From assembly GCA_041653635.1 (NCBI GenBank), contig JBAZFC010000001.1, positions 335,426-399,425 of the forward strand: DNA of 64,000 bases, in the 5' to 3' direction. The position numbers and the translations under genes were made by a program. Positions within the stretch are counted from its first letter, which is position 1, and every line of letters starts with the position of its first letter. The stretch is from Candidatus Micrarchaeia archaeon (GTDB lineage Archaea > Micrarchaeota > Micrarchaeia > Anstonellales > Bilamarchaeaceae). The notes beneath the pieces were generated by a model that made no database searches, was not told the origin of the DNA, and saw only the letters and a list, made by a program, of their open reading frames with translations. Below, piece by piece: positions 4,878 through 60,222 of this stretch.

Positions 4878-4884
4878 GGTGCGC

Positions 4885-5403: not shown

Positions 5404-5417
5404 GAATAACTGGGAAA
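5395..5417 (+). promoter_or_regulatory. promoter-like motif GGATTATAAGAATAACTGGGAAA upstream of the MBF1-like gene
   Basis: Second copy; contains the TAA stop of the upstream gene; ATG 8 nt downstream. Confidence 0.45.
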
Positions 5418-5424
5418 TCTGCTT

Positions 5425-5970
5425 ATGGTTGATTGCGACATCTGCGGAAGGAAAGGGGTTTCTTTCATAATAGCGGTGGAGGGCGCGAAGATGGCGGTGT
5501 GCCCCCGCTGCGCCTACCACGGGAAGATACTGCACTCTTTGGAGGGCGGGGAGGGCGAGCATGAGGAATCCCCAGCCAACAAGATTGATTATTCCACGCC
5601 AAAGCAATTCAGGACAGAAGAAGATATAGTGGATGGGTACGGGCGCAGGATTAGGAGGGCGCGGGAGGCCGTGAAGATTTCTTATGAGGAAGTGAATGAG
5701 TACGGGAAGAAGGAGAAGAAGACGCGCGGCATGACGATTGACGAGCTGGCGCGCAAGGCGAATGTGATGGCGTCCTGGCTGGACAGGGTGGAGAATGAGA
5801 GGATTTCGCCTACGATTGCGGAGGCGAAGAAATTGGAGAAGGCGCTTGGGATAAAATTGGTGGAGAAGATTGAGGTTTCGGTTACGCCTACGCTTAAACT
5901 GGGGGGAAGGAATACTGAGCTTACTTTGTTTGACATGGTTGAGATGCAGAAGAAAAAGAAGGAGAAATAA
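5425..5970 (+). CDS. MBF1-like transcriptional regulator (N-terminal zinc ribbon + C-terminal HTH XRE domain)
   Basis: CDICGRKG...CPRCAYHG zinc ribbon followed by TIDELARKANVMASWLDRVENERISPTIAEAKKLEKALGIKL helix-turn-helix; archaeal MBF1 architecture. Confidence 0.65.
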   Translation: MVDCDICGRKGVSFIIAVEGAKMAVCPRCAYHGKILHSLEGGEGEHEESPANKIDYSTPKQFRTEEDIVDGYGRRIRRAREAVKISYEEVNEYGKKEKKTRGMTIDELARKANVMASWLDRVENERISPTIAEAKKLEKALGIKLVEKIEVSVTPTLKLGGRNTELTLFDMVEMQKKKKEK

Positions 5971-7007: not shown

Positions 7008-7634
7008 TTAGATGTAGATTTTGAGGTATTTGGCTATTTTTCTCTTTAGTAAAGACGTCCTTTTTCCGACGATTTTTGCATTCTTCAGGGCCTTAAGCAG
7101 GGGCTTGGGCTGGAGCTGGTCTTCGGAAAGGTCTAATTCCGTATAAGTGGTCCCAAATTCGTAAGGGTAATGGGAATCGCTTCCCGCTGCCATTAGTTTC
7201 CCTTCCCTTTTGGCGAACTCTTCGGCTTTTTTGTCAAATCTCTCCAAAGAACGGGCGTTGAATACTTCTATTATGTCCGAAGCTTTTCCGTACTCTTCCT
7301 TCATTATTCCGGGGCGGAGCGCATCAAACATGTGCGGGGCGTAGGGAATTGCCCCCTGCGCGCGGAAGGAGTCGAGCGCCTCAAAGAAATCCACTCCCTT
7401 TTTCACCGGCTCATTTACGAAGAGTCCGATGAAGTCGCCCTGGGCGGTCTCTATCTCTTCCCCGGGAATAAAGGGGATACGGAATTTGCGGAATTCCGCG
7501 TGCGCACTTATGTTGTTGTGGTCTGTGATTGCTGGGATTACCCCTGTTTTTTTGGAGAGGGCGGCGAGCTGCCCGGGGGGTATCCTTCCGTCAGAAGAAT
7601 GGGAGGTATGCACGTGGAAGTCAATCCTTAGCAA
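7008..7634 (-). CDS. PHP-domain metal-dependent phosphoesterase
   Basis: N-terminal IDFHVHTSHSSDG motif typical of PHP (polymerase/histidinol phosphatase) domain; 208 aa. Confidence 0.7.
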   Translation of the reverse strand: MLRIDFHVHTSHSSDGRIPPGQLAALSKKTGVIPAITDHNNISAHAEFRKFRIPFIPGEEIETAQGDFIGLFVNEPVKKGVDFFEALDSFRAQGAIPYAPHMFDALRPGIMKEEYGKASDIIEVFNARSLERFDKKAEEFAKREGKLMAAGSDSHYPYEFGTTYTELDLSEDQLQPKPLLKALKNAKIVGKRTSLLKRKIAKYLKIYI

Positions 7635-7905
7635 CCAGGCACCCCTTTTTATCCAATAAGGCGAGCATTTCCTTGAGCAGGACCTTTGCCTCGGCTGATT
7701 CCGCGTCCTTTACTACTATTTTTCCGCTCTGGTATAAAGAGAAGGGCTTTCCCTTGTATGCGACGGAGAGGAAGACCTCGGTGAGGGCGAGGATGTCCGC
7801 TTCGGGAGGAAGGGACTGCTCCGCCTTCTTCAGCTCTATGGTGCCGCGCATGCGCAGCTCGCATGTTTTCGCAGTCACGCACGGTGAAAGGATGATGTAT
7901 TCCAT
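7621..7905 (-). CDS. hypothetical small protein (94 aa)
   Basis: ORF in same-strand string of genes; no recognised motif. Confidence 0.35.
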   Translation of the reverse strand: MEYIILSPCVTAKTCELRMRGTIELKKAEQSLPPEADILALTEVFLSVAYKGKPFSLYQSGKIVVKDAESAEAKVLLKEMLALLDKKGCLVAKD

Positions 7906-7951
7906 AGATGCACTTCTTTTGGATATGGTGCGAATTGGATTAAAAATCCCC

Positions 7952-8515
7952 CTATTCTTTGGAAAGGTTCTTGAAAAAAGCGAGGAGGGACGCCTGGTTG
8001 TTGCCCGAGAATTTGGTGTAGAGCATCAGGCGGCTGAATACGCGGGGCGGGACGCTGTCCACGAGGTCCTCGGCCTTCACCCCGGCATTCTCCTCCACGA
8101 AGCTGATTACCCTCTGCATGTCCTTGGAGGGGGCGCGGCTCTTTTTCATTGAGTATGCTGGGGGGCTTGAGGACTGGATGCTGGAAACCTGGGGCTGGGC
8201 GCTTGCTGGCTTCGCCGCCCTTCCGGATGAGCCGTTGTTTATTGCGCTGACGAGGTCGTGCCCGAGGACGACCATCTTCTCATAAGCCTTCATCCTGTCC
8301 TTTAGGTTTAAAGTGAAAATCTGCGAGAAATCTCCGTTGTGTTGGGAGCGTATGTGGGGAACGTAGGTCCAGATTATCTGCTCCCTGTGGTTCTGCGGGA
8401 GCGCCTGGTAATGGTGGGGCAGCATGGGCACTGGGAATTGCGGTGCGGAGGGGAAGCCGGTTTGCTCCTTCTGGCTCTCCTCCTGCGAACGGGTGTTCTC
8501 GTACCTCAGTATCAT
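7952..8515 (-). CDS. hypothetical protein (187 aa)
   Basis: ORF co-directional with neighbours; Ser/Pro-rich linker in the middle; overlapping + strand ORF 7529..8152 looks like a shadow frame. Confidence 0.35.
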   Translation of the reverse strand: MILRYENTRSQEESQKEQTGFPSAPQFPVPMLPHHYQALPQNHREQIIWTYVPHIRSQHNGDFSQIFTLNLKDRMKAYEKMVVLGHDLVSAINNGSSGRAAKPASAQPQVSSIQSSSPPAYSMKKSRAPSKDMQRVISFVEENAGVKAEDLVDSVPPRVFSRLMLYTKFSGNNQASLLAFFKNLSKE

Positions 8516-8552
8516 GTCGCCACAGTGCAGTTAAAGGTCTAACTTATGTTGT

Positions 8553-9635
8553 TTAAATAGTTTTCTGTCTGGAGAACGGGGCGGACACGGCGTGCATGAG
8601 CAGGGAACTGTCCAGTATGTGGCTTGGCTTGTCCATCTGCTGCTTCTTCGCCAGGTACTCGTCCATTCCGAAAAATGAGAGGAGATTGCCGGCGTGCCTT
8701 ATGCCGGAATCCGGGAGCATTCCATAGAATAAATGGGCGAAGCGGTGCATGCGCAGATCCTTATGGTATAAGGAGCGCCACTCCTTTTCGTATTTTTCAG
8801 GATGGGTGGCGTGCCTGCCCGCGAGCCTTGCGCAGGAGGTGCCGAAATAGACTCCTCCGCCTGTGGTGGATTTCACCTGGCCTGCGGCGTCCCCTGCGAG
8901 GAGGACTGTTTTGCCTCCTTTACGGAGGGAGGTTTTCCTCCTACATTCAAGCGGGATGAGGGCGAAATGGATTCTCCCTTCGGGCTGGAAGCCGGTGAGC
9001 TTTGAGAGTGCCTGTATGGAGGGAAGGGGATTGCCGGGAAGGATGACGCCCGTGCCCATCTCAGCCGTTTCCTCGTCATGGGGGATTAGCCAGCTGAAAA
9101 AACCGGGTGAGAGCTTGTTGGAGAGCCACGCGCGGATGAAATCAGGGTTTTCGCCATCATACTTTACTGCGCAGCGGGCGGTTATGGCGAACCTCTTCAT
9201 CTTGGGGAAACGGAAGCGCCTTGCGACTGAGGAAGTGGGGCCGTCCGCGCCTATTATGCATTCGCCGCGGAACTTTGAGGAAATCCTTTCCCCGCAGGTG
9301 AGCTTCGCCCCTTCGGATTCCGCCTTTTTCGCGAGCGCGGAGTCGAACGAAGCGCGGTCTATCACATAGGCGACGGGCTTCTTTGCATCTATGGTAATCT
9401 CGTGTCCGGCGAAATCAATGATTGCGCCGTGCATAGGGCGGATTGCATGCCTCCTGTAATCTATTATGTCGGAGAGGGACTTGAGGCCGTCCATAGAAAT
9501 GAGGCCCGAGCAGTCCGTGGGCAGGCCGGGGACTAAATGTTCCTCGCTTATTTCCACGTTGTGGCCTTCGCGCAGTGCGGAGATTGCGGCGACGGAGCCG
9601 GCTGGGCCTGCGCCGATGACGTGGACTGAATTCAT
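8553..9635 (-). CDS. FAD-dependent oxidoreductase, geranylgeranyl reductase family
   Basis: Dinucleotide-binding fingerprint VHVIGAGPAGS near the likely true start (Met 33 of the track ORF 8553..9731), IGADG and GDAAG motifs typical of GGR-type flavoproteins. Confidence 0.7.
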   Translation of the reverse strand: MNSVHVIGAGPAGSVAAISALREGHNVEISEEHLVPGLPTDCSGLISMDGLKSLSDIIDYRRHAIRPMHGAIIDFAGHEITIDAKKPVAYVIDRASFDSALAKKAESEGAKLTCGERISSKFRGECIIGADGPTSSVARRFRFPKMKRFAITARCAVKYDGENPDFIRAWLSNKLSPGFFSWLIPHDEETAEMGTGVILPGNPLPSIQALSKLTGFQPEGRIHFALIPLECRRKTSLRKGGKTVLLAGDAAGQVKSTTGGGVYFGTSCARLAGRHATHPEKYEKEWRSLYHKDLRMHRFAHLFYGMLPDSGIRHAGNLLSFFGMDEYLAKKQQMDKPSHILDSSLLMHAVSAPFSRQKTI

Positions 9636-15429: not shown

Positions 15430-15797
15430 TGAAGGGCCAGGTGACCGCGGAGTATCTTCTTCTTGTTGCGGTAGGGATTTCACTGCTTGGGATTTCCCTT
15501 GCCGCGCTTTCCACCATAAAAAATGCGGAGGGGACGGTGTATGCGAGGGAGAAGGCGAGGATGGCCGCCGGGGATTTGTCTTCCATTGCTTCTGAGGTTT
15601 GCGCATTGGGGGACGGAAATTCTAGAACCTATTCTTTGGAGAGCGCGGGGCTGGAATGCTCCGGAAATACTATTTCCGTGAGCGTGGGGAATGAGACGGC
15701 TTCTGCGGGCGTGCCGGGATGCGAAGTGGAGTGCGGGGGAGCGCATTCGGGCGGTGTAAGCATAAGGAATTCGCACGGGACTGTGATTATAGGATAG
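15429..15797 (+). CDS. class III signal peptide (archaeal type IV pilin-like) protein
   Basis: Internal start MKGQVTAEYLLLVAVGISLLG (track ORF 15414..15797); ATG overlaps upstream stop; several Cys in mature part. Confidence 0.6.
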   Translation: MKGQVTAEYLLLVAVGISLLGISLAALSTIKNAEGTVYAREKARMAAGDLSSIASEVCALGDGNSRTYSLESAGLECSGNTISVSVGNETASAGVPGCEVECGGAHSGGVSIRNSHGTVIIG

Positions 15798-16320
15798 ATT
15801 TGAGCAGCGGAATGAGTTCATGGTCTTTTTCTGCCCAGATTATGAAGCCATGGCCTTCCATGAGGATTATTTTGCCTTCTTTTGCCTTTGAGGAAACCGC
15901 ATTTGCAAGCTCAGGCGAGCCGTATGGAAGCTTTGGGACGAAAGGTAAGGAAGGTTTCCTTGAGAGCAAGGAATCGCCGTGGAAGTGCAGGATTGCAGAT
16001 GCGGGTACGGAGCGGTAGATAAAGTGGTGCATGAAGGACTCGGAGGAGGGGAGGGCTCCGGAATAGGAAAGGGAGAAATCGCTTTCGTTGACGGAAGCCA
16101 CATATGCGAGGTCCTCCTTCTTCAGGAGGGTGAGCTTGGAACCGGTGCCTTTTATCACAAACCCTTTTCCGCAGAGGACGCTGAGGTTGCCCTCGTTCGC
16201 GGATGGGGAAAGGAGACCCTTAAGGGTTGCATCCATGGCGAGGAGGCGGGAGGCGCATGCGCCTGGGACTCCACCCGGGACTTTTATAGCCCGGAACTTC
16301 ACGCCTTCATACTTTTCCAT
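15787..16320 (-). CDS. class II aldolase/adducin-like protein (tentative)
   Basis: 177-aa ORF with His-containing segment ILHFHGDS; sits next to an MtnA/e2b2-family gene, a context where class II aldolase-fold partners are common; weak assignment. Confidence 0.35.
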   Translation of the reverse strand: MEKYEGVKFRAIKVPGGVPGACASRLLAMDATLKGLLSPSANEGNLSVLCGKGFVIKGTGSKLTLLKKEDLAYVASVNESDFSLSYSGALPSSESFMHHFIYRSVPASAILHFHGDSLLSRKPSLPFVPKLPYGSPELANAVSSKAKEGKIILMEGHGFIIWAEKDHELIPLLKSIL

Positions 16321-38989: not shown

Positions 38990-39490
38990 TCAGGGCGTCT
39001 TCTTTAGGCGGTCTTTCTTCACATTCCCCTTAGTGGTTTCCGCCGGGATTCCGATAGGCAGGATGCAGACCGGCCTGCCTTGTTCTTGGAATATCCCCTT
39101 CACCTCTTCATCACTGAACGCACCCACCCATACCGCGCCGAGGCCGAGGTCCGTGGCCGCCAATTGCGCATAGCCCGCGGCGAGGGATGCGTCTATTATG
39201 CAGAATAAATTTCCCCGTTCCCCGTATTTCTTTGAGGAAGACGCCGCATCCGCGAAGAAGACGAACACTGCCGGGGCATCGGAAATGAAACCCTGGTTGA
39301 AGGCGGCCTTTGCGAGCTTTTCCTTAGTTTCTTTTTCAGTAACCAGATAGAAATGGTAGCTCTGCAGGTTGCCTGCGGACGGGGCTAGGTTGGCTGCATC
39401 CTTAATTGTGTCTAGCTGCTTCTGCGCGAGGGGCGAGGGCCTAAACAGCCGCGTGCTCTTCCTTTCCCTTATGAGTTTTTGGAATTCCAT
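38990..39490 (-). CDS. nitroreductase family protein
   Basis: 166 aa; N-terminal RERKSTRLF motif and overall nitroreductase-like pattern. Confidence 0.75.
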   Translation of the reverse strand: MEFQKLIRERKSTRLFRPSPLAQKQLDTIKDAANLAPSAGNLQSYHFYLVTEKETKEKLAKAAFNQGFISDAPAVFVFFADAASSSKKYGERGNLFCIIDASLAAGYAQLAATDLGLGAVWVGAFSDEEVKGIFQEQGRPVCILPIGIPAETTKGNVKKDRLKKTP

Positions 39491-39542
39491 GGCTAAACCG
39501 CCAGCATCAAACTATTTAATCGTTTCACCACATATCAATACT

Positions 39543-42500
39543 ATGAACAAGCACCTGATTTTGCTATTTGCTATTTTTGCAGTGGTTGCCATCCAGGCGG
39601 CTTTTGCCGAAGCGCAGACGAGCTATCCGCGCACATGGGAGGATAGCGGATGGGTTGCGAACAACGAGCACATAATGGACCTGGGCTTCTTTGAGATTTG
39701 GTATAGTGTAGAGCCAACAAACAACATCAGCAGGATGGATGTATTGGGGATCATGCTTCCATTCCATGAAAGCTTAGAAGAGGCGGAGCTTGAGCAACTG
39801 TTGCCGGAATGCCACGGCATCGGCTGCAACTCAAGCTCGGAGCTTGAGAGTGCGTTGCGGCATAAGGAATATGCTGATGGCTTGCTGGATTTCGTACGCA
39901 TCGGAAGCGCCGCATCTACATCCCACCCGGCGTATGACGTCGCTTACGAATGGTACCTAATGCACTATGTGGGGGACTGGAAGGATGCCATGGATTGTTC
40001 ACTACGTGCCGTGGAGAAGGAGGGCGCGGAAGTAAACGGCAGGAGGCTCGCTGTAGAGGCGACTATGGAGGAAGTGGCTAGTTCTGGCATATGTGAATCT
40101 AGGTATTCCGGCCCCGCGAACTGGATATGTTATGCGACTGTGGATGATGTGAGGTGCAACAGCAGCGGGCTGGATGATTCAATCCCTGACATGACCTGGT
40201 ACCCGGCATGCATGAGGACGCATTGGGAAACCGAAACGGTGCTTGGGGAGAAGAACGCCAACATGACCGAAAGCTGGGAGGGGGCGCAGGCAAAACTATC
40301 CGAGCTTGAGGCGTATGCCCTAGACTCCAGGGCGCAGGCGACTGTGCTCATTGACTTGATGACTGCGACAGAACTTGATGGGATAACTGTAAGCGCGGAA
40401 ACCAGCGACATCGGTGGGGTTGCGAGCATAAGTGACGAGTATGCGATCATAAAAAAGGAATATGAAAACGGGAATAAAGCAATGGGGGGTGCGGACACAC
40501 AAGCGAACAGCAGGTCGGATGGATGGTATAAGAAAAAATATGACTCTTATTGGGTGGCTGCCACATATTACGACGACATAGTTGTGAATGGCGCTTTGCT
40601 GTTGGAGGACGCGGAAGCGGTCGTGGCGGATTTTGGAGGTGAGGCGCATGCCGCACTGGCACAGGCGCAGCGCAGCACGAGACTGACCGAGGCGGGGCAG
40701 GCACATCTGGTTGAAGCGGAAATTGCATGCAATTTTGCGGACGCGGAAACAAAGCTCGGCGTCCGGTTCGAGCAATACGGGTCGTGTAGGATGCACGCGC
40801 GGCTTGCGCTGGACGGCACGGACATAGAACAGGCTGCTGAATATGAGGCAGCCGTGCTAGAAGTTGAAAAGCTTATCCAAAATGCGACAACTGATGGGAT
40901 AGACACACGTAATGAGCAGGCGCTCTTCACCATTGTAAAGAACATGAAACCCACAGACGCGGTGGAGATTCTCTCAAGAATCAAATCCAGCATACTCGGA
41001 AAGGCAAGGGTGCTGTATGGGGGCCTGCCTGGAGAAAGGGAAGATGCGAAAGCGCTCATAGAGGGTGGGGGTAGCAGCTTCGCTTACATGAATTCCTGGC
41101 TGGAGAGGGAGGATTGCTATTCGGGAAACGACCTTGATTATGATTGCGCAATCGGTAGCCTGAAGATGATGCACAACGGGTACATGAACATTTTCAATGC
41201 GACCGCCGCCCGGGCTGGTGAAGTGGTGGGCAACGCGATGCTGGTTGATTATTATGAGACTACTACCGCCGCCAGCCTTGACGAAGACAGCGAATACACC
41301 TTGGTTGTGCGGGCCAGAAATACCCTGCCGATGGGAGCGGAGAATGCAGTCATATCAGTTCCAGCCGGCGCGGAGATAGGGAAGATGGACCTTGTTGATG
41401 GAGGCGAGCGCGTGAGGACCGTAGCGTACCAGGACGGGGTCGCGACCATACAGCTTGTGCAGGTTTCGGCTGGAGAAGAAGTGGTGCTTGAATTCAAGAA
41501 AGGGTACCGTCCCTGCGTCGCGTCTGGCATCCGCACCAGCGCGGTCGGGGATGCAATAGGCGGCGCAAAGGTGAGCAGGCAGATGAGCCTTGCCTGTTCA
41601 ATGCAGGTGAACTCAATCAATGTTGGTTCGGGTTTTGATTCTGCGGTGCTGGACGGCACGGCCCACGCAGTCACGGACGGAATACTCAAGGCAAGGATAA
41701 CAAAAGGGACGCATTCCCTGGGCATCGTTGAGCATGTTGCAGACGCGTACGGAATGGACAAGAGCACTGAGTTGGTGACTACAGCCGGGACGATGACGAC
41801 AGTTGCATATATGATAGACATCTCTCCAAAAATGGACCTGGACATGGTTCCAGTATGGGTGGATGAGAGTGGCAAGAGCCCTAGATCTATAGATGTTTTT
41901 GGCTATACTGGGGAGCAAATCAAGAATGTGAAGAAGGACGGTACTGGGGTAGTCTATTTTGAGATAAACGGCTTAGAAGCGGACAAGCTGGCTAAGGTGC
42001 GGGTGAGGTACGAATTCTCCAATATCAGCAGCTATGTTGGGGATAGGATTGATGAGTTGGAGGGTGTGAATATGGGCGGCGAGGCGAGGGCGCTCCTGGG
42101 CAATGCGTCAAACCTTTATGCAGCAGGCGATTACGCAGGTGCCCTGGCTGCGCTGCAGAGCACCGAATCCCAGATTGAGAAAGACGCGAAAGCTGCCGTA
42201 AAGGTGGCTGCGAAGGATAGTGAATTGAGAGCAGAAATTTCAGAGAAGGCGGCAGAACTGCGGGGTGCAATCAACATCGGCGAGGATAATGGTGTGGGTA
42301 GCCAATACCTCCCAGAGATGCGTGCAAGGCTCAGTGTATTGGAAGGCGCGCTTGCACAGAACCTGAGTGTGGGAGCGACCTCCAGCCCGCTTGAGGATGT
42401 GGATTTGGGATGGGAAGGAAAAGAAATAACCAAGATACAGAAATATGTCAAGGACAACGAGGCGAAGATAAAAAAGGATTGGATGGCGATTGGTGTTGAT

Positions 42501-43250
42501 GACGCAAACCTGAGCAGCGCCATTTCAGGGCTTGAGGCACAGGGTGCCGTGTTCTCTGGCACTATGACGCTAGAGGATGGAATGCTCGCACTTGCCGCGC
42601 TGGAAAATGCACAGGATGCGCTTGATGCCCTTAAGGTGAGGGAAGGGGCAAAGGATGCGGTAGAGCGTTCAGCACTATCCAATCTTATAGCCGGAGCCAA
42701 TAGTGTGCTTTCCGAATACGAGGATGAGTATTCAGACCTGCCGTCTGGAGACAGCATGCTCTCGCTCTTTGAAAAGAAGCCGAATGAGATAAAGACGCGG
42801 CTGACGGCACTGAACCGCAGCACCAATACTGATGCCGCAATGGTGGAGGCGGCGCAGCTTAAGGCGGACATGGAGAGCGTGCTCGGTTTCCTTAATGGGG
42901 AAGGGCTGCGAATGATTGCTTCTGCCACTGACCTTTACACCGAATCAAAGGCTACGCTGGGGGAGGATGAAAAACAGGATGTGGAAAACTCCCTGGAAAT
43001 GGCCAACGATTACCTTGACAGCGGCAGATTTGTGAAATCCATCCTGGCAAGCGAGAACACAATCAGCAAGTTGAATGGTGCGGAGTCGGTGGATAACGGG
43101 TTACTTGTTCTTGCCCTCACTGCGCTCCTAGTTATTGGTGCCGTGGCGCTATTGCTATTCCGGAAAGGCAATGTTTGGCCATCAGGAAGTGGTAGGAACA
43201 AACCGAGTTTGAGGAAGCTGAAGAAAATTGAGGTTGATGAATTCGACTGA
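39543..43250 (+). CDS. large cell-surface protein (~1235 aa), signal peptide + C-terminal TM anchor; possible S-layer/adhesin
   Basis: Start at MNKHLILLFAIFAVVAIQAAFA (track ORF from 39369 overlaps the nitroreductase gene); C-terminal hydrophobic helix LLVLALTALLVIGAVALLLF followed by basic tail; many N-glycosylation sequons. Confidence 0.6.
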   Translation: MNKHLILLFAIFAVVAIQAAFAEAQTSYPRTWEDSGWVANNEHIMDLGFFEIWYSVEPTNNISRMDVLGIMLPFHESLEEAELEQLLPECHGIGCNSSSELESALRHKEYADGLLDFVRIGSAASTSHPAYDVAYEWYLMHYVGDWKDAMDCSLRAVEKEGAEVNGRRLAVEATMEEVASSGICESRYSGPANWICYATVDDVRCNSSGLDDSIPDMTWYPACMRTHWETETVLGEKNANMTESWEGAQAKLSELEAYALDSRAQATVLIDLMTATELDGITVSAETSDIGGVASISDEYAIIKKEYENGNKAMGGADTQANSRSDGWYKKKYDSYWVAATYYDDIVVNGALLLEDAEAVVADFGGEAHAALAQAQRSTRLTEAGQAHLVEAEIACNFADAETKLGVRFEQYGSCRMHARLALDGTDIEQAAEYEAAVLEVEKLIQNATTDGIDTRNEQALFTIVKNMKPTDAVEILSRIKSSILGKARVLYGGLPGEREDAKALIEGGGSSFAYMNSWLEREDCYSGNDLDYDCAIGSLKMMHNGYMNIFNATAARAGEVVGNAMLVDYYETTTAASLDEDSEYTLVVRARNTLPMGAENAVISVPAGAEIGKMDLVDGGERVRTVAYQDGVATIQLVQVSAGEEVVLEFKKGYRPCVASGIRTSAVGDAIGGAKVSRQMSLACSMQVNSINVGSGFDSAVLDGTAHAVTDGILKARITKGTHSLGIVEHVADAYGMDKSTELVTTAGTMTTVAYMIDISPKMDLDMVPVWVDESGKSPRSIDVFGYTGEQIKNVKKDGTGVVYFEINGLEADKLAKVRVRYEFSNISSYVGDRIDELEGVNMGGEARALLGNASNLYAAGDYAGALAALQSTESQIEKDAKAAVKVAAKDSELRAEISEKAAELRGAINIGEDNGVGSQYLPEMRARLSVLEGALAQNLSVGATSSPLEDVDLGWEGKEITKIQKYVKDNEAKIKKDWMAIGVDDANLSSAISGLEAQGAVFSGTMTLEDGMLALAALENAQDALDALKVREGAKDAVERSALSNLIAGANSVLSEYEDEYSDLPSGDSMLSLFEKKPNEIKTRLTALNRSTNTDAAMVEAAQLKADMESVLGFLNGEGLRMIASATDLYTESKATLGEDEKQDVENSLEMANDYLDSGRFVKSILASENTISKLNGAESVDNGLLVLALTALLVIGAVALLLFRKGNVWPSGSGRNKPSLRKLKKIEVDEFD

Positions 43251-52647: not shown

Positions 52648-52744
52648 CCATTTATTTTTCTACCGATGTATGCCTCCGCCACAATTTTTGATTTTCAAAC
52701 CCCTCCGAAAAAGCTTTATATAGCTTCCTTCCGATTAAGAGCCC

Positions 52745-52990
52745 ATGGCGTACATTGAAACTCTCCTCTCAGACATCCTGGTTACGCTCAAGTCCGTTGG
52801 CGTGTCAGTCTCTCTCCTCCTGATAATCATAGGGGGCCTGGTCTACGGGCTTGCGCAGCTGCAGCCCGGTGACACAAGGGGCAAATGGCAGAACATGGCA
52901 ATCGGCATTTTTGTGGGCGGTGTCGTGATTGCTGCCATAATTGGGGCCGCAGAGCTCATCCAGCTCGTCTCATCCAACCTCCTCACGTGA
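52745..52990 (+). CDS. small two-TM membrane protein (VirB2/CedA1-type pilin-like candidate)
   Basis: 81 aa with two hydrophobic helices separated by a short polar loop (QLQPGDTRGKWQN); first gene of a tight membrane operon. Confidence 0.5.
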   Translation: MAYIETLLSDILVTLKSVGVSVSLLLIIIGGLVYGLAQLQPGDTRGKWQNMAIGIFVGGVVIAAIIGAAELIQLVSSNLLT

Positions 52991-53002
52991 GGGAGTGAAC
53001 AG

Positions 53003-53932
53003 ATGGCCGCGGACCTGACGCTTGCCGGCATCGTAGTAAGCCTATCCATAATACTCTCAGGCCTGCTCATAGGCCTCGGCAAGACCATCGGCTCCAAGCG
53101 CGTTGAGCACTTCGGCGAGGAAGAGCTGGTCCAGTCCGCGATAAACGCCGCCCTCGTGGGCGCCTACGCCGCCATCATCTCTATTGCCAGCGAGGTGAGC
53201 AAGGGAATCGCGGAGGGGCAGACATGCGTCGCCGGCGACGCGCTTGAGAACCTCCAGTGCATCTTCTCCAATTTATCCGCCGACATCTTCCAGCTCCTCA
53301 CCCAGGCAATCAACCTCCACCAGATAGTCTCCTATTACCAGTCCATAACGCTGGAGTTCGCAACCTTCTCCATCCAGCCGATGTCCCACCTCTCATCCAT
53401 CCAGTCCATACTCGGAGGGCAGATTCTCACGCTGCAGGCGCTCCTCACGCTCGCCCAGCTCCAGGTGCAGATACTCGCCTTCTTTGCCCCGCAGCTCCTC
53501 ACCTTCTTCCTCCCGCTCGGCCTCATCTTCCGCTCCTTCTTCTCCACGCGCAAGCTCGGCGGCTTCCTCATCGCGCTCTCCATCGGAATATATCTCTTCT
53601 ACCCCGCGTTCATCCTCATCTTCCCGGCGCCCCAGTTCAACGTCACGGCCGCCAACCTCACCAACCTCACCAACACCTCCCTTTACACCACGGTCCCGAT
53701 ACTTGACCTGAACGACAACTACGCCATCGCCAGCAGGTTCGACAACATGACCACCGGCGACTTCACCGGAGACCTCACGCTCGCCACCCAGCAGATAAGC
53801 GCCTCCATCGCCTCGCTCTCCATGTTCGTGATGCTCGCGCCCCTGTTTTCGCTCCTCATAACAGTCATATTCATAAAGGAGGTCACCGACATATTCGGCG
53901 GTGAATTCTTCTTCGCGGTGAGTTCCCTATGA
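53003..53932 (+). CDS. polytopic membrane protein (VirB6/CedA-like channel candidate)
   Basis: 309 aa, about five hydrophobic helices, extracytoplasmic region with several N-x-S/T sequons; 4-nt overlap with the next gene. Confidence 0.5.
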   Translation: MAADLTLAGIVVSLSIILSGLLIGLGKTIGSKRVEHFGEEELVQSAINAALVGAYAAIISIASEVSKGIAEGQTCVAGDALENLQCIFSNLSADIFQLLTQAINLHQIVSYYQSITLEFATFSIQPMSHLSSIQSILGGQILTLQALLTLAQLQVQILAFFAPQLLTFFLPLGLIFRSFFSTRKLGGFLIALSIGIYLFYPAFILIFPAPQFNVTAANLTNLTNTSLYTTVPILDLNDNYAIASRFDNMTTGDFTGDLTLATQQISASIASLSMFVMLAPLFSLLITVIFIKEVTDIFGGEFFFAVSSL

Positions 53933-54708
53933 TACAGAACCGAATGGTAACCATGATGGCGCTTGCTGGCGGGCTTGCAGCCCTTGTGATGGCGATAGTG
54001 CTGTGGAGCCCGATATTCTCCGCGCTCGCCGGCTTCTTTTTCGCCCTCTCCCTGATGGTCTGGAAATACGGCTACCTCCTGATTCCGTACATAACAAAAG
54101 CCGGACGCATAGTAGAAATCCGCGGCGGCTACGAAATCCCGCCCACCCGCGACTGCATCATAAAAAAATCGGGCAACGGCTTCTACTCCACGAAATTCCT
54201 TGAAATCCGCTATTATGAGAGCACGGTGGACAAGAGCACGCAGGACCGCTCGTCCATGCTCGCCTCGTTTGAGAAGGCGCTCGCCTCGCTCAAGAACACA
54301 GTTAAAATCTCGCTCCTAGTCTCGGAAGTTGACCTCACAAAAGAAATAGACGAGCTGAAGACGCGCAGGAGCTCCGCCGAGAACAAGCGCAGGAAACTCC
54401 CGCCCAACAGCGAGGAGCTCGTCCGCCTTGACCGCGAAATCGCGATGTACAACCGCCAGCTTGAGCGCATCACCCGCGGCGACCGCCCGCTCGTGCTCAC
54501 GTCCTTCGTCTCCACCACCGCATACGGCGTCACTAGGGAGGAGGCGCTCTCCAAGGTGCGCAGGCAGGCGAAGGAGGTCAAGACCATCGTATCCTCCACC
54601 CTTGGCGCGGACGTCGTTGACCTGTTTGACCTTGACATGATAAGGTGCTTCGAATGGGAGTTCTTCCTCCCGCCGGAGGTGGAACAGCTTAAGGATGAGG
54701 TATTCTAG
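53929..54708 (+). CDS. membrane-anchored protein (N-terminal TM hairpin + soluble domain; possible VirB3/VirB4-N-like part)
   Basis: 259 aa; two N-terminal TM helices then charged soluble domain; ends with TAG immediately followed in the same frame by the ATG of the ATPase gene. Confidence 0.5.
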   Translation: MIQNRMVTMMALAGGLAALVMAIVLWSPIFSALAGFFFALSLMVWKYGYLLIPYITKAGRIVEIRGGYEIPPTRDCIIKKSGNGFYSTKFLEIRYYESTVDKSTQDRSSMLASFEKALASLKNTVKISLLVSEVDLTKEIDELKTRRSSAENKRRKLPPNSEELVRLDREIAMYNRQLERITRGDRPLVLTSFVSTTAYGVTREEALSKVRRQAKEVKTIVSSTLGADVVDLFDLDMIRCFEWEFFLPPEVEQLKDEVF

Positions 54709-56145
54709 ATGGATGTGCAGAAGCTCAACGTCTCCGACCTCTCAAAGCGCCTCTTCCTGGTGCATCCCCCAGAGCCCCGCCCCGACTCCCTCATCTCCTC
54801 CGTGAATGAGGGCATATACATCGGCAAGACGCGCTGGCTCAACGTCCCCGTCTTCTGGAACTTCAAGAAGCTGATTAACCCGCACGTCGCCATCGTCGGC
54901 ATAACCGGCTCGGGCAAATCCTACCTCGTGAAAACCTTCCTCACCCGCGCCTCGCTCATCTGGAACTCCAACGCAATAATCCTTGACTGGGTTGGCGAAT
55001 ACGACAAATGGGTGAAGCAGGCTGGGGGCACGGTCCTCCACCTTGGGGAGGAACACCTCAACCTCATGGACCTCGCGGGGCTCACGCCCTCCGAGCGCAC
55101 GAAGCAGATAATGTCCGCCCTGGAAATCCTTCTTGACCTGCACAACTTCCCAGCGGAGCGCAACGACATTGAGGAGGCGATAGAGGACACGTACGCGGGC
55201 GTGAAGAACCCCACCCTCAGCAACGTCGTTGAAATGCTGGAGAAAGGAAGGAAGAAATCCGCGGCGCGCCTGCTCAAGCACTTCACCACCCAGGGCAGCG
55301 ACTTCTTCGCGAAGCCCTCCACGCTCGCGATGGAGAAGCTCACCAACTCCGGGCTCATGTGCATAGACCTGCACTCCCTCCCAACCGAGGAGATGCGCTC
55401 GCTAGCCGGCCTCACAATCCTGCAGTTCCTCAAGGAAAAAATGCGCAGGGAGGAGATGAAGGAGGAGAAGGGCGTCCGCCTCTTCGTCGTGGTTGATGAG
55501 GCGTGGAAGATTGCGAGCGACGAAAGGAGCGACGTCATCACGATAGTGAGGGAGGGGAGGAAATACAACTTCGCCCTCATAGTCGCGTCCCAAAACCCGA
55601 CGGACATGCACAAGACAATCTTCAGCAACGTCGGCACGATGTTCATCCTGCGCCTCATCCTGAGGGAGTTCAAAGACTACGTCCGCCAGTCCCTCAGCTA
55701 CTCGGATTACATAGATTCTGAGATTTCCAAGTTCGGCGTCGGGGACGCCGCAATGAACATGATATTCTCAAAACGCACCAGCGGCTCGCACACCTTCCTG
55801 CTCAACAAGATTGACGGGGAGGAGCCGCTTTTCATTTATGCGCTGGAGGTTGATGGCATGTCTGTTGAGAAGGAAAGGGAACAGTTCTGCAATATGCTCT
55901 ACGAGCTCGGGCTCACGGACGAGCAGATAGGGCTCGTGAAGAACGAGTTTGAGAGGAATGACGGCACTATGGACGCCACCGCGTTCGTGTCGCTGCTGGA
56001 AAAGTTCGGCTATTCGCCCTCGTCAATAATGGGCTTCCTGCGCCAGCTGGAGGTGGACGAGAAGGACATAGTTGAGATATTCTCCCTTGCGAGGAGGAGG
56101 AAGGCCACCAAGGGGCTGGTTGACCTCACCCTTACGGAGGAATAA
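54709..56145 (+). CDS. P-loop ATPase of the VirB4/TraC/CedB/HerA-like (DUF87-type) class
   Basis: Walker A AIVGITGSGKSYLV, Walker B RLFVVVDEAWKIA, downstream IVASQNP. Confidence 0.7.
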   Translation: MDVQKLNVSDLSKRLFLVHPPEPRPDSLISSVNEGIYIGKTRWLNVPVFWNFKKLINPHVAIVGITGSGKSYLVKTFLTRASLIWNSNAIILDWVGEYDKWVKQAGGTVLHLGEEHLNLMDLAGLTPSERTKQIMSALEILLDLHNFPAERNDIEEAIEDTYAGVKNPTLSNVVEMLEKGRKKSAARLLKHFTTQGSDFFAKPSTLAMEKLTNSGLMCIDLHSLPTEEMRSLAGLTILQFLKEKMRREEMKEEKGVRLFVVVDEAWKIASDERSDVITIVREGRKYNFALIVASQNPTDMHKTIFSNVGTMFILRLILREFKDYVRQSLSYSDYIDSEISKFGVGDAAMNMIFSKRTSGSHTFLLNKIDGEEPLFIYALEVDGMSVEKEREQFCNMLYELGLTDEQIGLVKNEFERNDGTMDATAFVSLLEKFGYSPSSIMGFLRQLEVDEKDIVEIFSLARRRKATKGLVDLTLTEE

Positions 56146-56147
56146 TT

Positions 56148-56843
56148 ATGGAAGAGATAATCCGCATAAGCACGAAAAGGAAAAGGCCGCTTAAGCCGCT
56201 GCTCCAGACGCTCGGCTCATTCGGGTTCACGAAGGTGGATTACTCCGACGAGGCCCTCATAATAGAGAAGGTGGAGTCCGAGGACCTGAACGGCAAGCCA
56301 TACCTCTATTACCATCTTGAGCTGCTCAAGGGCGCAATAGTATTCAAATACACCGTGCCGACGCTCGAAAACAAAACGTCGCGCATGCTGGAGATGGGCC
56401 TCCTGCTCATGAACCTCTTCCAGCTCCTCACCGCGTATTACGACGTGCCGGTGCAGGCCGCCTACCCGCTCTATTTCCCGCTGCTCAAATCCCTCTCCGA
56501 GTCCATGGACAAGGAGAAGCTGGAAACGTATTCCGAGCTCAAGGACCTCAGGCAGAAGCACAACTCCCTGGAGCGCAAGTACAACGACCTTGTCCAGGCG
56601 AGCGCGCAGAACGCGCGCATCCTCGTTGAATATGAGAGGAAGAACGAAGACCTCGGCGACAGGGTGAAGAAGCTGGAGGGCGTTGGCGACATGGAGATGC
56701 AGGGCCAGCTATTTGAATGGGTGCGCACCCACGACGGCGAGATAGATGTGCTGGAGTTCTCCCGCCTCAACAACATCGCCGTGGGCAGGGTGGAAGAGGG
56801 CCTTGACGCCCTCATAAAGAACGGGTTCATAAGGAAAAGGTAG
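56148..56843 (+). CDS. hypothetical coiled-coil protein with C-terminal winged-helix-like domain
   Basis: 231 aa; central heptad-like charged region, C-terminal VLEFSRLNNIAVGRVEEGLDALIKNGFI; last gene of the membrane operon (2-nt gap from ATPase). Confidence 0.45.
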   Translation: MEEIIRISTKRKRPLKPLLQTLGSFGFTKVDYSDEALIIEKVESEDLNGKPYLYYHLELLKGAIVFKYTVPTLENKTSRMLEMGLLLMNLFQLLTAYYDVPVQAAYPLYFPLLKSLSESMDKEKLETYSELKDLRQKHNSLERKYNDLVQASAQNARILVEYERKNEDLGDRVKKLEGVGDMEMQGQLFEWVRTHDGEIDVLEFSRLNNIAVGRVEEGLDALIKNGFIRKR

Positions 56844-57009
56844 GGATTGCAATGCCGCCAAAAGAGAAGGAGAAGAAATCCAGCGGGTACCGCTTTGAGA
56901 TGCTCAGGAGGTTCTCCCGCCCGCGCTCCTACATAATCACGCGGCAGTACAAGATGGACATGCTTTCAATCCTTTCCAAGACGATTTCAACCATAATGGG
57001 TGGCAAGCA

Positions 57010-58302
57010 ATGAAGATAGTCCTTGTCGGCTCGGGCGCGAGGGAGCACGCAATCGCGGAGCAGCTTTCCAAGGGCGCCTCCCTCTATTCCATAATGGAAA
57101 AAAGGCACCCCGGCATAATGAAGCTCTCCACCGAATCCCTCATCTGCGACCCCGCGGACAAGGAGGAAGTGGGCGCATGGTGCATAGAAAAAGGGATAGA
57201 CCTCGGCTTCGTAAGCCCGGACGGCCTGCTTGAAAAAGGCGTCTCGGACATGCTCGCATCCGCGGGCATCAAGGTCGCCTCCCCCCTCCGCGCCGCCGCA
57301 CGCATTGAATGGGACAAGGGATACGCGCGCACGCTCCTGCACAAGCACGGCATCTCCGGCCTCCCCAAATTCCTTCTCGTAAAAAATATGGCAGAAGCCG
57401 AAAAATTCCTTTCCGAACTCGGCGACGTTGTCATAAAGCCCGTCGGCCTGACCGGCGGAAAAGGCGTGCGCATAATGGGCGAGCACCTTGAGTCTTCCGA
57501 GGACGCCCTTTCCTACATCTCCGAACTCATAAAGAAGGACGGGCACGCACTGCTCGAAGAAAAATTGGATGGAGAGGAATTCTCCCTCCAGGCGTTCTGC
57601 GACGGCACGCACCTTTCCGCGATGCCCCCGGTGCAGGACCACAAGCGCGCCTTCGTCAATGACGCGGGCCCCAACACGGGCGGCATGGGCTCCTATTCCT
57701 CCGGCCGCCTCCTCCCCTTCATGGAGCTGAAGGATTTGGAGGAGGCGAAATCCATAATGCAGAAGACCGTTGACGCGATGCGCGAGGAGGGCAACCCCTT
57801 CAAGGGCATCCTCTACGGCGGCTTCATGATAACCCGCGGGGGCGTCAAGCTCATAGAATACAACGCCCGCTTCGGCGACCCCGAGGCGATGAACGTGCTG
57901 ATGCTCCTGCGCACCCCGCTCGCCGACATCCTGAAGTCCATTTCCGAGGGCAGCCTGCAGGAGGCGGCGTTCTCCACCAACTGCACCGTGGTGAAATACC
58001 TCGTGCCCGAGGGCTACCCCGGCGCCGGGAAGAAGGATTCAAAAATAGAAGTGGACCAGCGCGCAGTGTGGGACTGCGGCGCCAAGGCATACTACGCATC
58101 CGTCTATGAGAAGGGCGGCTCCATATTCACCACAACCTCCCGCGCCGTGGCTGTGGCCGCGCAGGATGCGGCGCTTGAGCACGCGGAGGAGAAGGCGGAA
58201 TGCGCGACGCGCGCAGTCCACGGCCAGCTCTGGCACCGCCCCGACATCGGGACGCCCGCCCTCGTCCGCAGGAGGGTGGAGCACATGAGGAGGCTGAAAT
58301 GA
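57010..58302 (+). CDS. purD: phosphoribosylamine--glycine ligase
   Basis: 430 aa; MKIVLVGSGAREHA N-terminus, ATP-grasp motifs (VIKPVGLTGGKGV, EEKLDGEEFSLQAF). Confidence 0.85.
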   Translation: MKIVLVGSGAREHAIAEQLSKGASLYSIMEKRHPGIMKLSTESLICDPADKEEVGAWCIEKGIDLGFVSPDGLLEKGVSDMLASAGIKVASPLRAAARIEWDKGYARTLLHKHGISGLPKFLLVKNMAEAEKFLSELGDVVIKPVGLTGGKGVRIMGEHLESSEDALSYISELIKKDGHALLEEKLDGEEFSLQAFCDGTHLSAMPPVQDHKRAFVNDAGPNTGGMGSYSSGRLLPFMELKDLEEAKSIMQKTVDAMREEGNPFKGILYGGFMITRGGVKLIEYNARFGDPEAMNVLMLLRTPLADILKSISEGSLQEAAFSTNCTVVKYLVPEGYPGAGKKDSKIEVDQRAVWDCGAKAYYASVYEKGGSIFTTTSRAVAVAAQDAALEHAEEKAECATRAVHGQLWHRPDIGTPALVRRRVEHMRRLK

Positions 58303-59528
58303 TGCGCGCAAAGGACGCACTGTTGCTGCTCTTGCTCCTCAACCTTTCGTTCTCCGCATACTCCGGCCGCATGGTCGCAACGGTGGAGAAGGAATGGCTC
58401 ATAGAGTCCAACGGCACCCTCCGCAACGTCCTGCTCAACAGCTCCTTCCTTTCCGAATCCCCACACCAGCGCATAACCAGCATGAACACTAGCGACGGCG
58501 AGCTGGTGCGCTACGGCGACGAGGTGCGCCTCATATACCGGGCGGATTCCACGAATCCCCCCAAGCGCATAACCGCCACCGCCACCATTGAAGTTTCCTA
58601 TATGCCCGCGCTCTCCTCAAACCCGCCCCTCACGAACCTTTCATACCAATCCACGGAATTCACAAACTACACCGGAGAGATGGCGCAGTTCTCCGGCGCC
58701 CAGACCTCCTCCTCATCAGGCCAGCTGCATGCCGCCGCAATCCTCACGGACTGGGTCAGCAAGAACGTCCGTTACGACATGGCGTTCTGGGGCAGGGACG
58801 CGCCGGCGCAGGACGTCTGGTCCGGGAGGGGGGCGGTGTGCGTCGGCTACACGCACCTCCTGCTTGCCCTCGCCCGCTCCATAGGGCTTGAGGCCCGCTA
58901 CGTTTCCGGCTACGTGTTTTCCGACGACTGGCAGGAGCATGCATGGGCGGAATTCAACATAGGGGGCCAGTGGGTGGCCGCGGACCCCACGTTCCGCGAG
59001 TTCGCGTTCCTTGACGCCCGCCACATCGCGTCCCGCTATTCGGACGACCAGTCCGGCGCAGTTGACCGCATGTCCGCGCGCGGCGGCGATTTCTCCTTCA
59101 ACTCCATAACCCACGTCCGCATAACCGAGAGCGCGCCGTTCCCCGAACAGGCGACGGCATACGCCGCCTTTGACGGCACGGAATTCACCGTGGCCATCTC
59201 CAACACGCGGGGCACATATTTCACGCCAACCCTTACCGCCACCTTCCCGCCCTACATACACAGGGAGGAGCGCGGCATACTCTTCCTCGCCCCCATGGAG
59301 AGGAAAACGCTCTCCTATTCGCTGGACACCAGTTCGCTAGGCGGTGGCGGCTACTACTCCGTCCCTTATATCATATCCATACAGGGCACGGAGATAAGCG
59401 ACACAATACAGCTCTCCCGCAGCGGTGAACAGCCATCATCCCAGCCGCAGTCAGCCGCATGCCCGGTCACGCTTGCGCTCGTACTATCCTTATTCCTCAC
59501 AATCGCGCGCTACAAACCGAATGTTTAA
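58299..59528 (+). CDS. transglutaminase-like domain protein, secreted and C-terminally membrane-anchored
   Basis: Start MMRAKDALLLLLLLNLSFSA overlaps the purD stop; Cys-His-Asp-like core (GRGAVCVGYTHLLLALARSIG ... HAWAEF); C-terminal hydrophobic anchor. Confidence 0.6.
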   Translation: MMRAKDALLLLLLLNLSFSAYSGRMVATVEKEWLIESNGTLRNVLLNSSFLSESPHQRITSMNTSDGELVRYGDEVRLIYRADSTNPPKRITATATIEVSYMPALSSNPPLTNLSYQSTEFTNYTGEMAQFSGAQTSSSSGQLHAAAILTDWVSKNVRYDMAFWGRDAPAQDVWSGRGAVCVGYTHLLLALARSIGLEARYVSGYVFSDDWQEHAWAEFNIGGQWVAADPTFREFAFLDARHIASRYSDDQSGAVDRMSARGGDFSFNSITHVRITESAPFPEQATAYAAFDGTEFTVAISNTRGTYFTPTLTATFPPYIHREERGILFLAPMERKTLSYSLDTSSLGGGGYYSVPYIISIQGTEISDTIQLSRSGEQPSSQPQSAACPVTLALVLSLFLTIARYKPNV

Positions 59529-59565: not shown

Positions 59566-60222
59566 GTGACTATGGCCCGCGCAACAAAGGAATCCACACA
59601 GGAAATCGTACATGGCATCAACGACCAGCTGAACTCCATCTTCAACGAGCTCTCATTGATGGCACCGGCCTACTCTTCGCAGAGGACGCAGTTTGAATCC
59701 GATTTCACGAGGATACAGCGCGCGCTCGTCCTTGAATACACTAGGAACCCGCCATCTAAGCTGCCTTCCCCGGAAAATCTGCGCCTGCACCTGCTCGGCG
59801 AAGTAGTGGATAGGGCTACAAACGCGGACCTCAAGGCAGCTGCCGCGCTACTGCCCAACCCCGAGCCCGTTTCCCGCGCGCCCCCGTCCCGGAGCCCGGA
59901 GCCCGCGGCCAGCGTGGCAGAAAGGGAGATGGAGCCAATGCTTATCTCCGCCGTAACCCCCACAACCACCCCCCGCCGCACTTCAGCGCCCACCATTTCA
60001 GAGCTGAGGAGCCAAGGCTACACCAACGTAATAGACGTGCGCTTTGACGAGGAGAACAAGGTGTACCGCTTCGCGTGCAACGACCCGAACCTTGACCTTA
60101 TCGGGATGACGCGCCAGCAGCTCATAGATTATGCGAAGGAGAATCCGTCCGCGCTCAAGATATTTGAAGTGAACTCGCGCGGCTACGCAACAAAGGAAGT
60201 GCGCCCCTCCTCACTGGAGTAA
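59566..60222 (+). CDS. hypothetical protein with Pro/Ser-rich central linker
   Basis: 218-aa ORF; no recognised motif; converges on pcn. Confidence 0.4.
   Translation: MTMARATKESTQEIVHGINDQLNSIFNELSLMAPAYSSQRTQFESDFTRIQRALVLEYTRNPPSKLPSPENLRLHLLGEVVDRATNADLKAAAALLPNPEPVSRAPPSRSPEPAASVAEREMEPMLISAVTPTTTPRRTSAPTISELRSQGYTNVIDVRFDEENKVYRFACNDPNLDLIGMTRQQLIDYAKENPSALKIFEVNSRGYATKEVRPSSLE

Follow-up and report, generated by a model that had tools for sequence, protein, structure and literature searches.

The 64,000-nucleotide stretch of Candidatus Micrarchaeia DNA analysed here (the window; contig JBAZFC010000001.1, positions 335,426 to 399,425) carries five closely packed genes, g1 to g5, at window positions 52745–56843. 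We consider this operon probably to be a domesticated chromosomal derivative of type IV secretion system (T4SS)/conjugation machinery, of the Ced/Ted kind, in a member of the Micrarchaeota (DPANN archaea). The reference point is the Ced system (CedA, CedA1, CedA2, CedB and CedD) of the Sulfolobales and Desulfurococcales (van Wolferen 2016; Beltran 2023, PMC9905601; PMC11823120). The original prediction for this locus, a Ced/Ted-type or T4SS-like DNA-transfer apparatus and possibly a new variant, is supported by a CedB-type motor, by a predicted helical hairpin in g1 and by a structural match of g2 to VirB6/TrwI; the DNA-transfer part of the proposal is drawn by analogy. Three outcomes had been named beforehand as counting against it, and none arose: the ATPase did not fall into an unrelated P-loop family, g1 was predicted to form a hairpin, and no operon of the relatives was firmly assigned to another function. 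Homology of the system to T4SS/Ced-type machines is very likely, whereas DNA import specifically, which is argued from Ced, is possible but falls somewhat short of probable.

A motor ATPase encoded by two genes

Sequence alignment demonstrates that g3 and g4 together correspond to a split CedB-type VirB4 homologue. The P-loop ATPase is encoded by g4, in which the Walker A (GITGSGKS) and Walker B (VVVDEAW) motifs reported earlier were located at residues 64–71 and 260–266. In Pfam, g4 matches DUF87 (the HerA central domain; E 3.8e-17) and AAA_10 (E 1.6e-14). Its top-ranked NCBIfam model is CedB ('DNA import protein CedB'; E 3.5e-30, 105 bits, g4 residues 31–326 against model positions 249–549 of 590), followed by the CD1110 VirB4-like model (2.5e-25), CedD (1.5e-21), VirB4_plasma and VirB4_CagE, with HerA (1.9e-16) placed after all of these. 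No unrelated P-loop family was assigned, in agreement with the proposed VirB4/HerA-type ATPase. The CedB equivalog model (NF041017) has a cut-off of 700 bits and spans the whole protein; since g4 scores far under this threshold, it is a distant relative of CedB rather than an orthologue. The score of g4 against the VirB4_CagE model TIGR00929 is likewise 62 bits, with a cut-off of 643, and the N-terminal CagE_TrbE_VirB domain (Pfam PF03135) was not detected in g3 or g4.

Only ~30 residues precede the P-loop domain of g4, so that the N-terminal half of CedB/VirB4 is missing from it. The product of g3 consists of a transmembrane (TM) hairpin (residues ~7–47), an alpha/beta domain and a coiled-coil insert. 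The original prediction had described this 259-residue protein as a component of its own with an N-terminal TM hairpin; hydropathy bears out the hairpin, but the protein is the N-terminal half of the ATPase and not an independent component. In an exhaustive phmmer search with g3 as the query, 1.84 billion representative proteins yielded 146 relatives, mostly stand-alone proteins of ~240–280 residues or shorter fragments. Among them is a 603-residue protein, P0339 (E 7.8e-5, P0339 residues 28–227 covered), which carries Walker motifs of its own and aligns from end to end with the CedB model (221.7 bits, residues 13–595 against model positions 9–587 of 590). A profile built from 71 g3 sequences aligned with P0339 at 96.8% probability in hhalign (E 3e-10, g3 residues 38–244 to P0339 residues 42–237), and g4 residues 20–372 aligned with P0339 residues 257–598 (BLASTP 4e-16). 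The two genes thus align with successive parts of P0339 and are colinear with a single CedB-like protein.

Family-wide searches with g3 gave more scattered results. The NCBIfam models matched by most of the 71 family members were VirB4_plasma (nine) and CedB (seven); the CD1110 VirB4-like model was matched by four and tied for third place with two unrelated models. The g3 orthologue of one locus (L038) aligned over residues 16–193 to positions 9–175 of the CedB model. An NCBIfam scan of one set of ten g3 members yielded no CedB match, a family-wide Pfam scan gave no consistent family, and a profile search of PDB sequences with g3 returned nothing meaningful.

We surveyed the best 80 of 157 stretches encoding a g4 relative on one-genome-per-species GTDB contigs, and mapped the open reading frames (ORFs) of 87 loci by iterative hidden Markov model (HMM) searches. 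In every one of the more than 80 loci concerned, g3 and g4 are separate, adjacent ORFs, so the split is not a sequencing artefact. Beyond the end of the region shared with P0339, g4 carries a C-terminal extension of ~110–150 residues without a Pfam family match, and in some paralogous loci its last ~100 residues form a separate ORF of ~99 residues. Distant g3-like proteins of ~238–246 residues (P0301, P0312, P0325, P0336 and others; 20–26% identity, E 1e-4 to 1e-8) are also found on metagenome contigs and may represent related split-VirB4 systems beyond the lineages sampled here.

Membrane components and lineage-specific partners

Hydropathy gives g1 two TM segments, and structure prediction returns a helical hairpin (predicted local distance difference test score, pLDDT, 90.7; helices 2–37 and 42–79). 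This confident prediction, together with repeated sub-threshold Pfam matches to T4SS pilins and VirB2, agrees with the earlier view of the 81-residue protein as a two-helix hairpin. Within the g1 family, T4SS_pilin was matched by 12 of the 15 members (best E 1.3e-4) and TrbC/VirB2 by three of them (best E 4.8e-4), all below the gathering score. The g1 model superposes on the CedA1 pilin of Aeropyrum (76 of 84 residues). A class III (type IV pilin) motif is absent from its N-terminus (MAYIETLLS), as is a signal peptide, and a profile search of PDB sequences with g1 returned nothing meaningful. Similarity between CedA1 and CedA has been described (Beltran 2023, PMC9905601); the equivalent comparison of g1 with the N-terminus of g2 gave an hhalign probability of 16% over 23 columns, which is not significant. 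A VirB2/CedA1-like identity for g1 is supported, not proven.

For g2, a 309-residue polytopic protein with several sequons according to the original prediction, hydropathy confirms ~5 TM segments with two predicted external loops, in which a conserved cysteine pair and all six N-x-S/T sequons are located. Pfam, NCBIfam and PDB-sequence searches, with g2 singly or as a family, found no match, and no sequence similarity to CedA was detectable. An AlphaFold2 model computed with a 64-sequence alignment is all-alpha, with several helices of 35–50 residues (pLDDT 85, predicted template modelling score 0.76). Two hits rank above VirB6/TrwI in a structural comparison of this model, covering just 62–64 residues, so that VirB6 is the best full-length match. 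On the strength of the predicted structure, a VirB6-like nature of g2 is supported but not proven.

The soluble partner g5 adjoins g4 in 82 of the 87 loci. Its N-terminal domain is of unknown fold and is followed by a central coiled coil and, at the C-terminus, a winged helix, in line with the coiled-coil/winged-helix description given to this 231-residue protein earlier. The winged helix has two matches. The first, seen in 44 of the 67 family members (best E 3.2e-6), is to the Pfam family EAP30/Vps36 (ESCRT-II); the second is to PDB chain 2xvc_A (deposited as ESCRT-III, 59 residues; E 1.8e-4), which we take to be the winged helix of Sulfolobus CdvB, a binder of a CdvA peptide. Sequence resemblance of this sort suggests that the winged helix of g5 binds protein rather than, or besides, DNA. 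Directly 3' of g5 in ~41 loci (local HMM, E 1e-4 to 1e-23) lies g6, whose product carries the motif Y-x-F ... R/K-S-Y/F-I-I. The same motif recurs in paralogous loci (E 3e-4 to 1e-3): within a large membrane protein of 897 residues in L064 (residues 26–72), in L075 (residues 26–62) and, in L057, in an 80-residue ORF upstream of the large membrane protein. One could speculate that g6-type motifs are docking peptides bound by the winged helix of g5.

The unit had been predicted to end with g5 at 56843, which is not borne out: g6, purD and a transglutaminase-like gene follow. Stop and start codons overlap as ATGA between g6 and purD (57010–57013) and between purD and the transglutaminase-like gene (58299–58302). 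purD is syntenic with the operon in 38 loci and the transglutaminase-like gene in 28, the order g5-g6-purD-transglutaminase being maintained in 28–38 loci. Given these overlaps and the order kept across loci, the transcription unit probably extends over 52745–59528. purD is then probably co-transcribed with the operon and is a possible functional member of the machine. The transglutaminase-core protein begins with a signal or TM segment, is anchored by a TM segment at its C-terminus, and might, speculatively and by analogy, be an envelope-remodelling accessory functionally comparable to VirB1.

Distribution, known relatives and alternative readings

The locus is a chromosomal, conserved, multi-paralogue system. 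More than 1300 g4 relatives were found, and the best 80 loci are nearly all labelled Micrarchaeota, the exceptions being labelled Ca. ainarchaeum, Ca. Burarchaeum, unclassified archaeon or, in one case, Marsarchaeota. The g3-g4-g5 core is present in the best 80 loci wherever the flanks suffice, and g5 accompanies g3-g4 in almost every locus. Loci of the window type, with the order [g1]-g2-g3-g4-g5-g6-purD-transglutaminase, number ~40 and have ATPases at least 59% identical; synteny is conserved across the related loci sampled down to that identity. A second group has the layout [g1]-[g2 x1-5]-g3(x1-2)-g4-(g4 C-terminus)-X-g5-'big', with X being a two-TM protein that carries a Zn ribbon and 'big' a membrane protein of ~800–900 residues with the g6 motif in its N-terminal region in at least two loci; a Pfam scan of X, 'big' and the separate g4 C-terminus gave nothing above noise. 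At least 10 genomes within the top 80 have two paralogous loci. In LFW-35 both (L046 and L082, each with g3-g4-g5) lie ~190 kb apart on one contig (CABMCJ010000004.1, 920,852 nt), which shows that the presence of multiple systems in one genome is genuine rather than created by binning.

The most elaborate layouts are those of L052, L057, L072, L077, L079 and L080 (positions ~100–9100 in each), which have four to five tandem g2 copies and two g3 copies, the g4 C-terminal domain as an ORF of ~99 residues, X, g5 and the large membrane protein. In a divergent locus labelled 'Parvarchaeota' (L006), g5 is missing and PheT follows the ATPase; directly upstream of the g1 homologue lie ~4 kb without called genes (1194–5154). 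Downstream of the operon in L005, at a distance of ~3.5 kb (15659–16246), lies a gene for an ATPase of the T2SSE family (type IV pilus/archaellum), which is of note since Ced cooperates with Ups type IV pili in the Sulfolobales.

The genes flanking the window operon are housekeeping genes, encoding PurF, PheT, a DEAD-box helicase, an M17 aminopeptidase, PurQ, PurL and an NFACT-R protein upstream, and PurD, the transglutaminase-core protein and PCNA downstream, and the operon is accordingly no mobile element. These flanking genes include no integrase, relaxase or VirD4-like gene, and together with the conserved synteny this bears out the earlier view that the system is chromosomal and not plasmid-borne. 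The nearest tRNA genes of the window are >30 kb from the operon, and no relatives were found on IMG/VR viral contigs. Among the nearest plasmid proteins to g4 are several CD1110-family VirB4-like ATPases of Firmicutes, at ~24% identity. The g4-family HMM matches g4 alone among all ORFs of the 64-kb window, giving no second VirD4-like ATPase (CedD/TedD), and Pfam found no FtsK, TraG or TrwB domain in the proteins flanking the operon.

The components suggest how such a machine could work, although how it assembles, whether it forms hexamers, what it carries and in which direction, and what g5 and g6 contribute are all matters that we infer. In this proposal g3 and g4 would form a joint VirB4/CedB-type motor, presumably hexameric, to which g3 would contribute the TM hairpin and N-terminal domain and g4 the P-loop ATPase, placed under a platform or channel formed by the VirB6-like g2. 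The motor would pull the two-helix pilin g1 out of the membrane and assemble from it a short pilus or conduit that crosses the S-layer. The substrate brought into the cell by this route would be nucleic acid, as in Ced most likely the DNA of a neighbouring or host cell in contact. The lineage-specific cytoplasmic adaptors might be g5, predicted to dimerise through its coiled coil and bearing a winged helix of ESCRT-II/CdvB type, together with the small, basic g6.

The closest known system is Ced. Both systems are chromosomal and lack a relaxase, and both combine a CedB-type ATPase (N-terminal TM hairpin, N-terminal domain and P-loop domain) with a polytopic membrane protein encoded beside a two-helix protein of ~80 residues without a signal peptide (the candidate pilin g1; the pilin CedA1, PMC9905601). 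The Micrarchaeota ATPase differs in being divided between two genes, in scoring 105 bits where the CedB model asks for 700, and in the C-terminal extension of g4 past the end of P0339. Further differences are the ~5 TM segments of g2 with no detectable CedA similarity, the failure to see CedA2 or CedD in the window, the obligatory extra partners g5 and g6, the several paralogous loci per genome, and the host, an ultrasmall DPANN archaeon from metagenome assemblies and not a hyperthermophilic crenarchaeon. With Ted (TedA–TedD, Thermoproteales) the system shares, on the assignments proposed for g1 and g2, a VirB2-like, VirB6-like and VirB4-like logic, and further a chromosomal location and components too divergent for BLAST-level recognition between systems. 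TedC, however, has a cleaved signal peptide, which g1 lacks (PMC9905601), and Ted loci are associated with ParA/VirC1, Rad50 and HerA, none of which is found at the Micrarchaeota operon.

In bacteria, the inner-membrane core of conjugative T4SSs (R388 structure 7O3V, PMC9259494) offers parallels for g2 in TrwI/VirB6 and for g1 relatives in TrbC/VirB2 and T4SS_pilin, while the TM hairpin of g3 ahead of a VirB4-type N-terminal domain resembles VirB3-VirB4 arrangements. The Micrarchaeota operon nevertheless has no VirB1, VirB5, VirB7–11, VirD4, relaxase or CagE_TrbE_VirB domain, and the envelope is archaeal. The tandem g2 copies of some paralogous loci can be compared with the tandem VirB6 paralogues of Rickettsiales T4SSs. 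The T4SSs of Patescibacteria (candidate phyla radiation, CPR) are also conserved, chromosomal and relaxase-less, with VirB2-like pilins in ultrasmall organisms of reduced genome (PMC12102498, PMC12857230), and a role in macromolecule uptake or at the host interface is, by analogy, plausible in both. Those systems are bacterial and of MPF-FATA (mating pair formation) ancestry; their VirB4 is intact, and they include parts resembling VirB1, VirB3, VirB8 and VirD4, which are lacking in the Micrarchaeota system, itself nearer CedB. Nanohaloarchaeal 'SPEARE' giant surface proteins (PMC10266531) provide another DPANN case of a genetic link between a VirB4-like ATPase and surface proteins of very large size. 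In the nanohaloarchaea the two are fused in one polypeptide, whereas in the Micrarchaeota they are separate and linked just by the g6-type N-terminal motif.

Several observations weigh against a Ced/Ted-type origin or function. The CedB cut-off is undershot by g4 and, at 23 bits, by the best g3 relative; plain phmmer ranks PDB HerA chains over the VirB4 chain for g4; and the pilin evidence for g1 is sub-threshold, helical hairpins being common and 16 unrelated chains outranking CedA1 in the superposition. g1 is detectable beside the system in just ~20 of the 87 loci, and many paralogous loci lack g1 and g2, leaving g3-g4-g5 alone as universal. The window has no CedD/VirD4-like second ATPase, and neither Ced nor Ted has a counterpart of g5, g6, the g4 C-terminal extension, purD or the transglutaminase-like protein. 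Two or more loci per genome fit host interaction at least as well as DNA repair.

A T4SS/Ced-derived machine could also be imagined to serve symbiont–host contact, through uptake of host RNA, nucleotides, lipids, proteins or metabolites, or through effector delivery or surface-protein anchoring. We regard this as unlikely, if well worth keeping in view: the source organism belongs to the Micrarchaeota (DPANN), the system is conserved across related loci and duplicated within genomes (LFW-35; 10 genomes among the top 80), paralogous loci combine four to five g2 copies with the Zn-ribbon membrane protein and a surface protein of ~800–900 residues bearing the g6 motif, and translational coupling ties purD and the gene for a surface protein resembling transglutaminases to the window operon. 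Precedents exist in the chromosomal T4SS of Patescibacteria, with VirB2-like pilins and essential for epibiotic growth (PMC12102498, PMC12857230), in a 2026 preprint tying Patescibacteria-type pili to host RNA uptake (10.64898/2026.06.21.733656), and in VirB4/TraG-like ATPase domains of nanohaloarchaeal giant surface proteins (PMC10266531). Against this, the Ced systems, which are the nearest relatives to have been characterised, take up DNA for recombination, genes resembling effectors are not evident, and PurF, PurQ, PurL and PurD are encoded, so that nucleotide scavenging is not obviously needed. More speculatively, and with some doubt on our part, the Micrarchaeota may possess a conserved and expanded family of domesticated T4SS-like machines, composed of the split CedB-type motor, a VirB6-like platform, a VirB2-like pilin and g5 and g6 as lineage-specific adaptors, as the archaeal counterpart of the growth-essential Patescibacteria T4SS, a conduit for host nucleic acids or macromolecules, with the paralogous loci that include giant surface proteins and transglutaminase-like enzymes specialised in attachment, envelope breaching and uptake.

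The remaining readings are less likely. The universality of g3-g4-g5, the lack of above-threshold family assignments for g1 and g2, the EAP30/Vps36 and 2xvc_A matches of g5 and the ranking of PDB HerA chains in plain phmmer would all suit a membrane-tethered ATPase complex of the HerA/FtsK superfamily engaged in membrane remodelling or division, or in the insertion or export of large surface proteins. Such a complex is nonetheless improbable, given that the colinear CedB-type match of g3 and g4 takes in a membrane-anchored N-terminal domain that HerA lacks, that CedB and VirB4 models score above HerA models, that there is neither a HAS-barrel nor a NurA partner, and that the VirB6 structural hit of g2 and the pilin hits of g1 agree independently. 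Weak matches of g4 to anti-phage HerA NCBIfam models (49–52 bits) and to PDB anti-phage HerA chains raise the idea of a defence module built on a HerA-like ATPase, which is very improbable: these scores lie under those of CedB/VirB4, the partners are four membrane or coiled-coil proteins and include no Sir2, DUF4297 or nuclease, and the fixed position beside purD across distant genomes is unlike that of variable defence islands. Archaeal conjugative plasmids do encode VirB4-like ATPases and membrane proteins without recognisable relaxases (PMC12857230), but to derive the operon from an integrated conjugative plasmid or integrative and conjugative element, as its remnant or its cargo, is scarcely credible in view of the housekeeping flanks, the absence of an integrase or flanking tRNA, a composition matching the genome, the same neighbourhood in dozens of species to 59% identity, and relatives that on plasmids reach only ~24% and on viral contigs are not found at all.

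Three further classes do not fit. A HerA–NurA resection helicase is not supported, judging by the ~30 residues ahead of the g4 P-loop, by CedB scores exceeding those of HerA and by the membrane-protein neighbours. An archaeal type IV pilus or archaellum, in its canonical form already set aside in the original prediction, would call for PF00437 and PilC matches, which the operon does not show, and for a class III motif, which g1 lacks. A bacterial conjugative T4SS (MPF) does not fit either, with PF03135 undetected in g3 and g4 and no VirD4, relaxase or VirB1/VirB8-type neighbours.

We found no paper on a Ced- or T4SS-like system in the Micrarchaeota or other DPANN archaea, and the archaeal entries of a T4SS review of 31 December 2025 are only crenarchaeal and Thermococcus plasmid systems, with no DPANN (PMC12857230). 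One NCBI record names a 67%-identical g4 homologue (P0041) 'DNA import protein CedB', so automated annotation has already brushed against the system. The machinery family is already known; new are the lineage, the split motor, the obligatory partners and the multi-locus expansion. Archaeal domesticated conjugation machinery has so far been reported from hyperthermophilic Crenarchaeota only. If the Ced/Ted-type reading is true, such machinery extends to Micrarchaeota whose sources bear names referring to groundwater, sediment and marine samples, a VirB4-type motor can function as two polypeptides, and the long-standing question of material exchange between DPANN archaea and their hosts gains a six-to-eight-gene candidate.

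Layout of the locus and its surroundings

The ORF list and sequence bear out the original account of five co-directional ORFs, including their coordinates, the 4-, 0- and 2-nt junctions and the upstream TATA element (Table 1). The gap between g1 and g2 is 12 nt, g2 and g3 overlap by 4 nt, g3 and g4 abut (0 nt), and 2 nt separate g4 from g5. With dozens to more than 1000 homologues each and the same order elsewhere, g1–g5 are genuine genes and not chance ORFs. The TATA core of the promoter-like element AGCTTTATATAGC ends ~21 nt ahead of the g1 ATG, in keeping with an archaeal transcript without a leader. For the operon region, scans for sigma-70 promoters and for terminators gave nothing above shuffled expectation. 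The GC content of the operon is 0.571 and that of the window 0.553, and third-position GC likewise matches the rest of the window.

Table 1. Features of the operon and the genes that follow it, in window coordinates.
Feature	Position	Strand	Basis or remark
Operon core g1–g5	52745–56843	+	Five closely packed same-direction ORFs read from sequence
Promoter-like element AGCTTTATATAGC	52712–52724	+	TATA core 52717–52724 with a purine-rich stretch resembling a B recognition element (BRE) ahead; read from sequence
g1, two-helix membrane hairpin, candidate VirB2/CedA1-like pilin, 81 aa	52745–52990	+	
g2, polytopic membrane protein, candidate VirB6/CedA-like channel or platform, 309 aa	53003–53932	+	
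g3, N-terminal half of split CedB/VirB4-type ATPase, 259 aa	53929–54708	+	
g4, ATPase half of split CedB/VirB4-type motor, 478 aa	54709–56145	+	
g5, soluble coiled-coil and winged-helix partner, 231 aa	56148–56843	+	
g6, basic 53-aa protein, conserved	56852–57013	+	
purD (GARS)	57010–58302	+	ATGA overlap with g6
Transglutaminase-core membrane protein	58299–59528	+	ATGA overlap with purD; Pfam Transglut_core 1.3e-20

Two further ORFs of the window were noted. One of 218 residues (59566–60222), without a Pfam match, lies on the same strand 38 nt past the transglutaminase-like gene and was not seen at the corresponding position in two of the related loci (L001 and L003). The other, of 1293 residues with a TTG start (39369–43250) and no Pfam match at E<=0.001, might encode a large surface protein.

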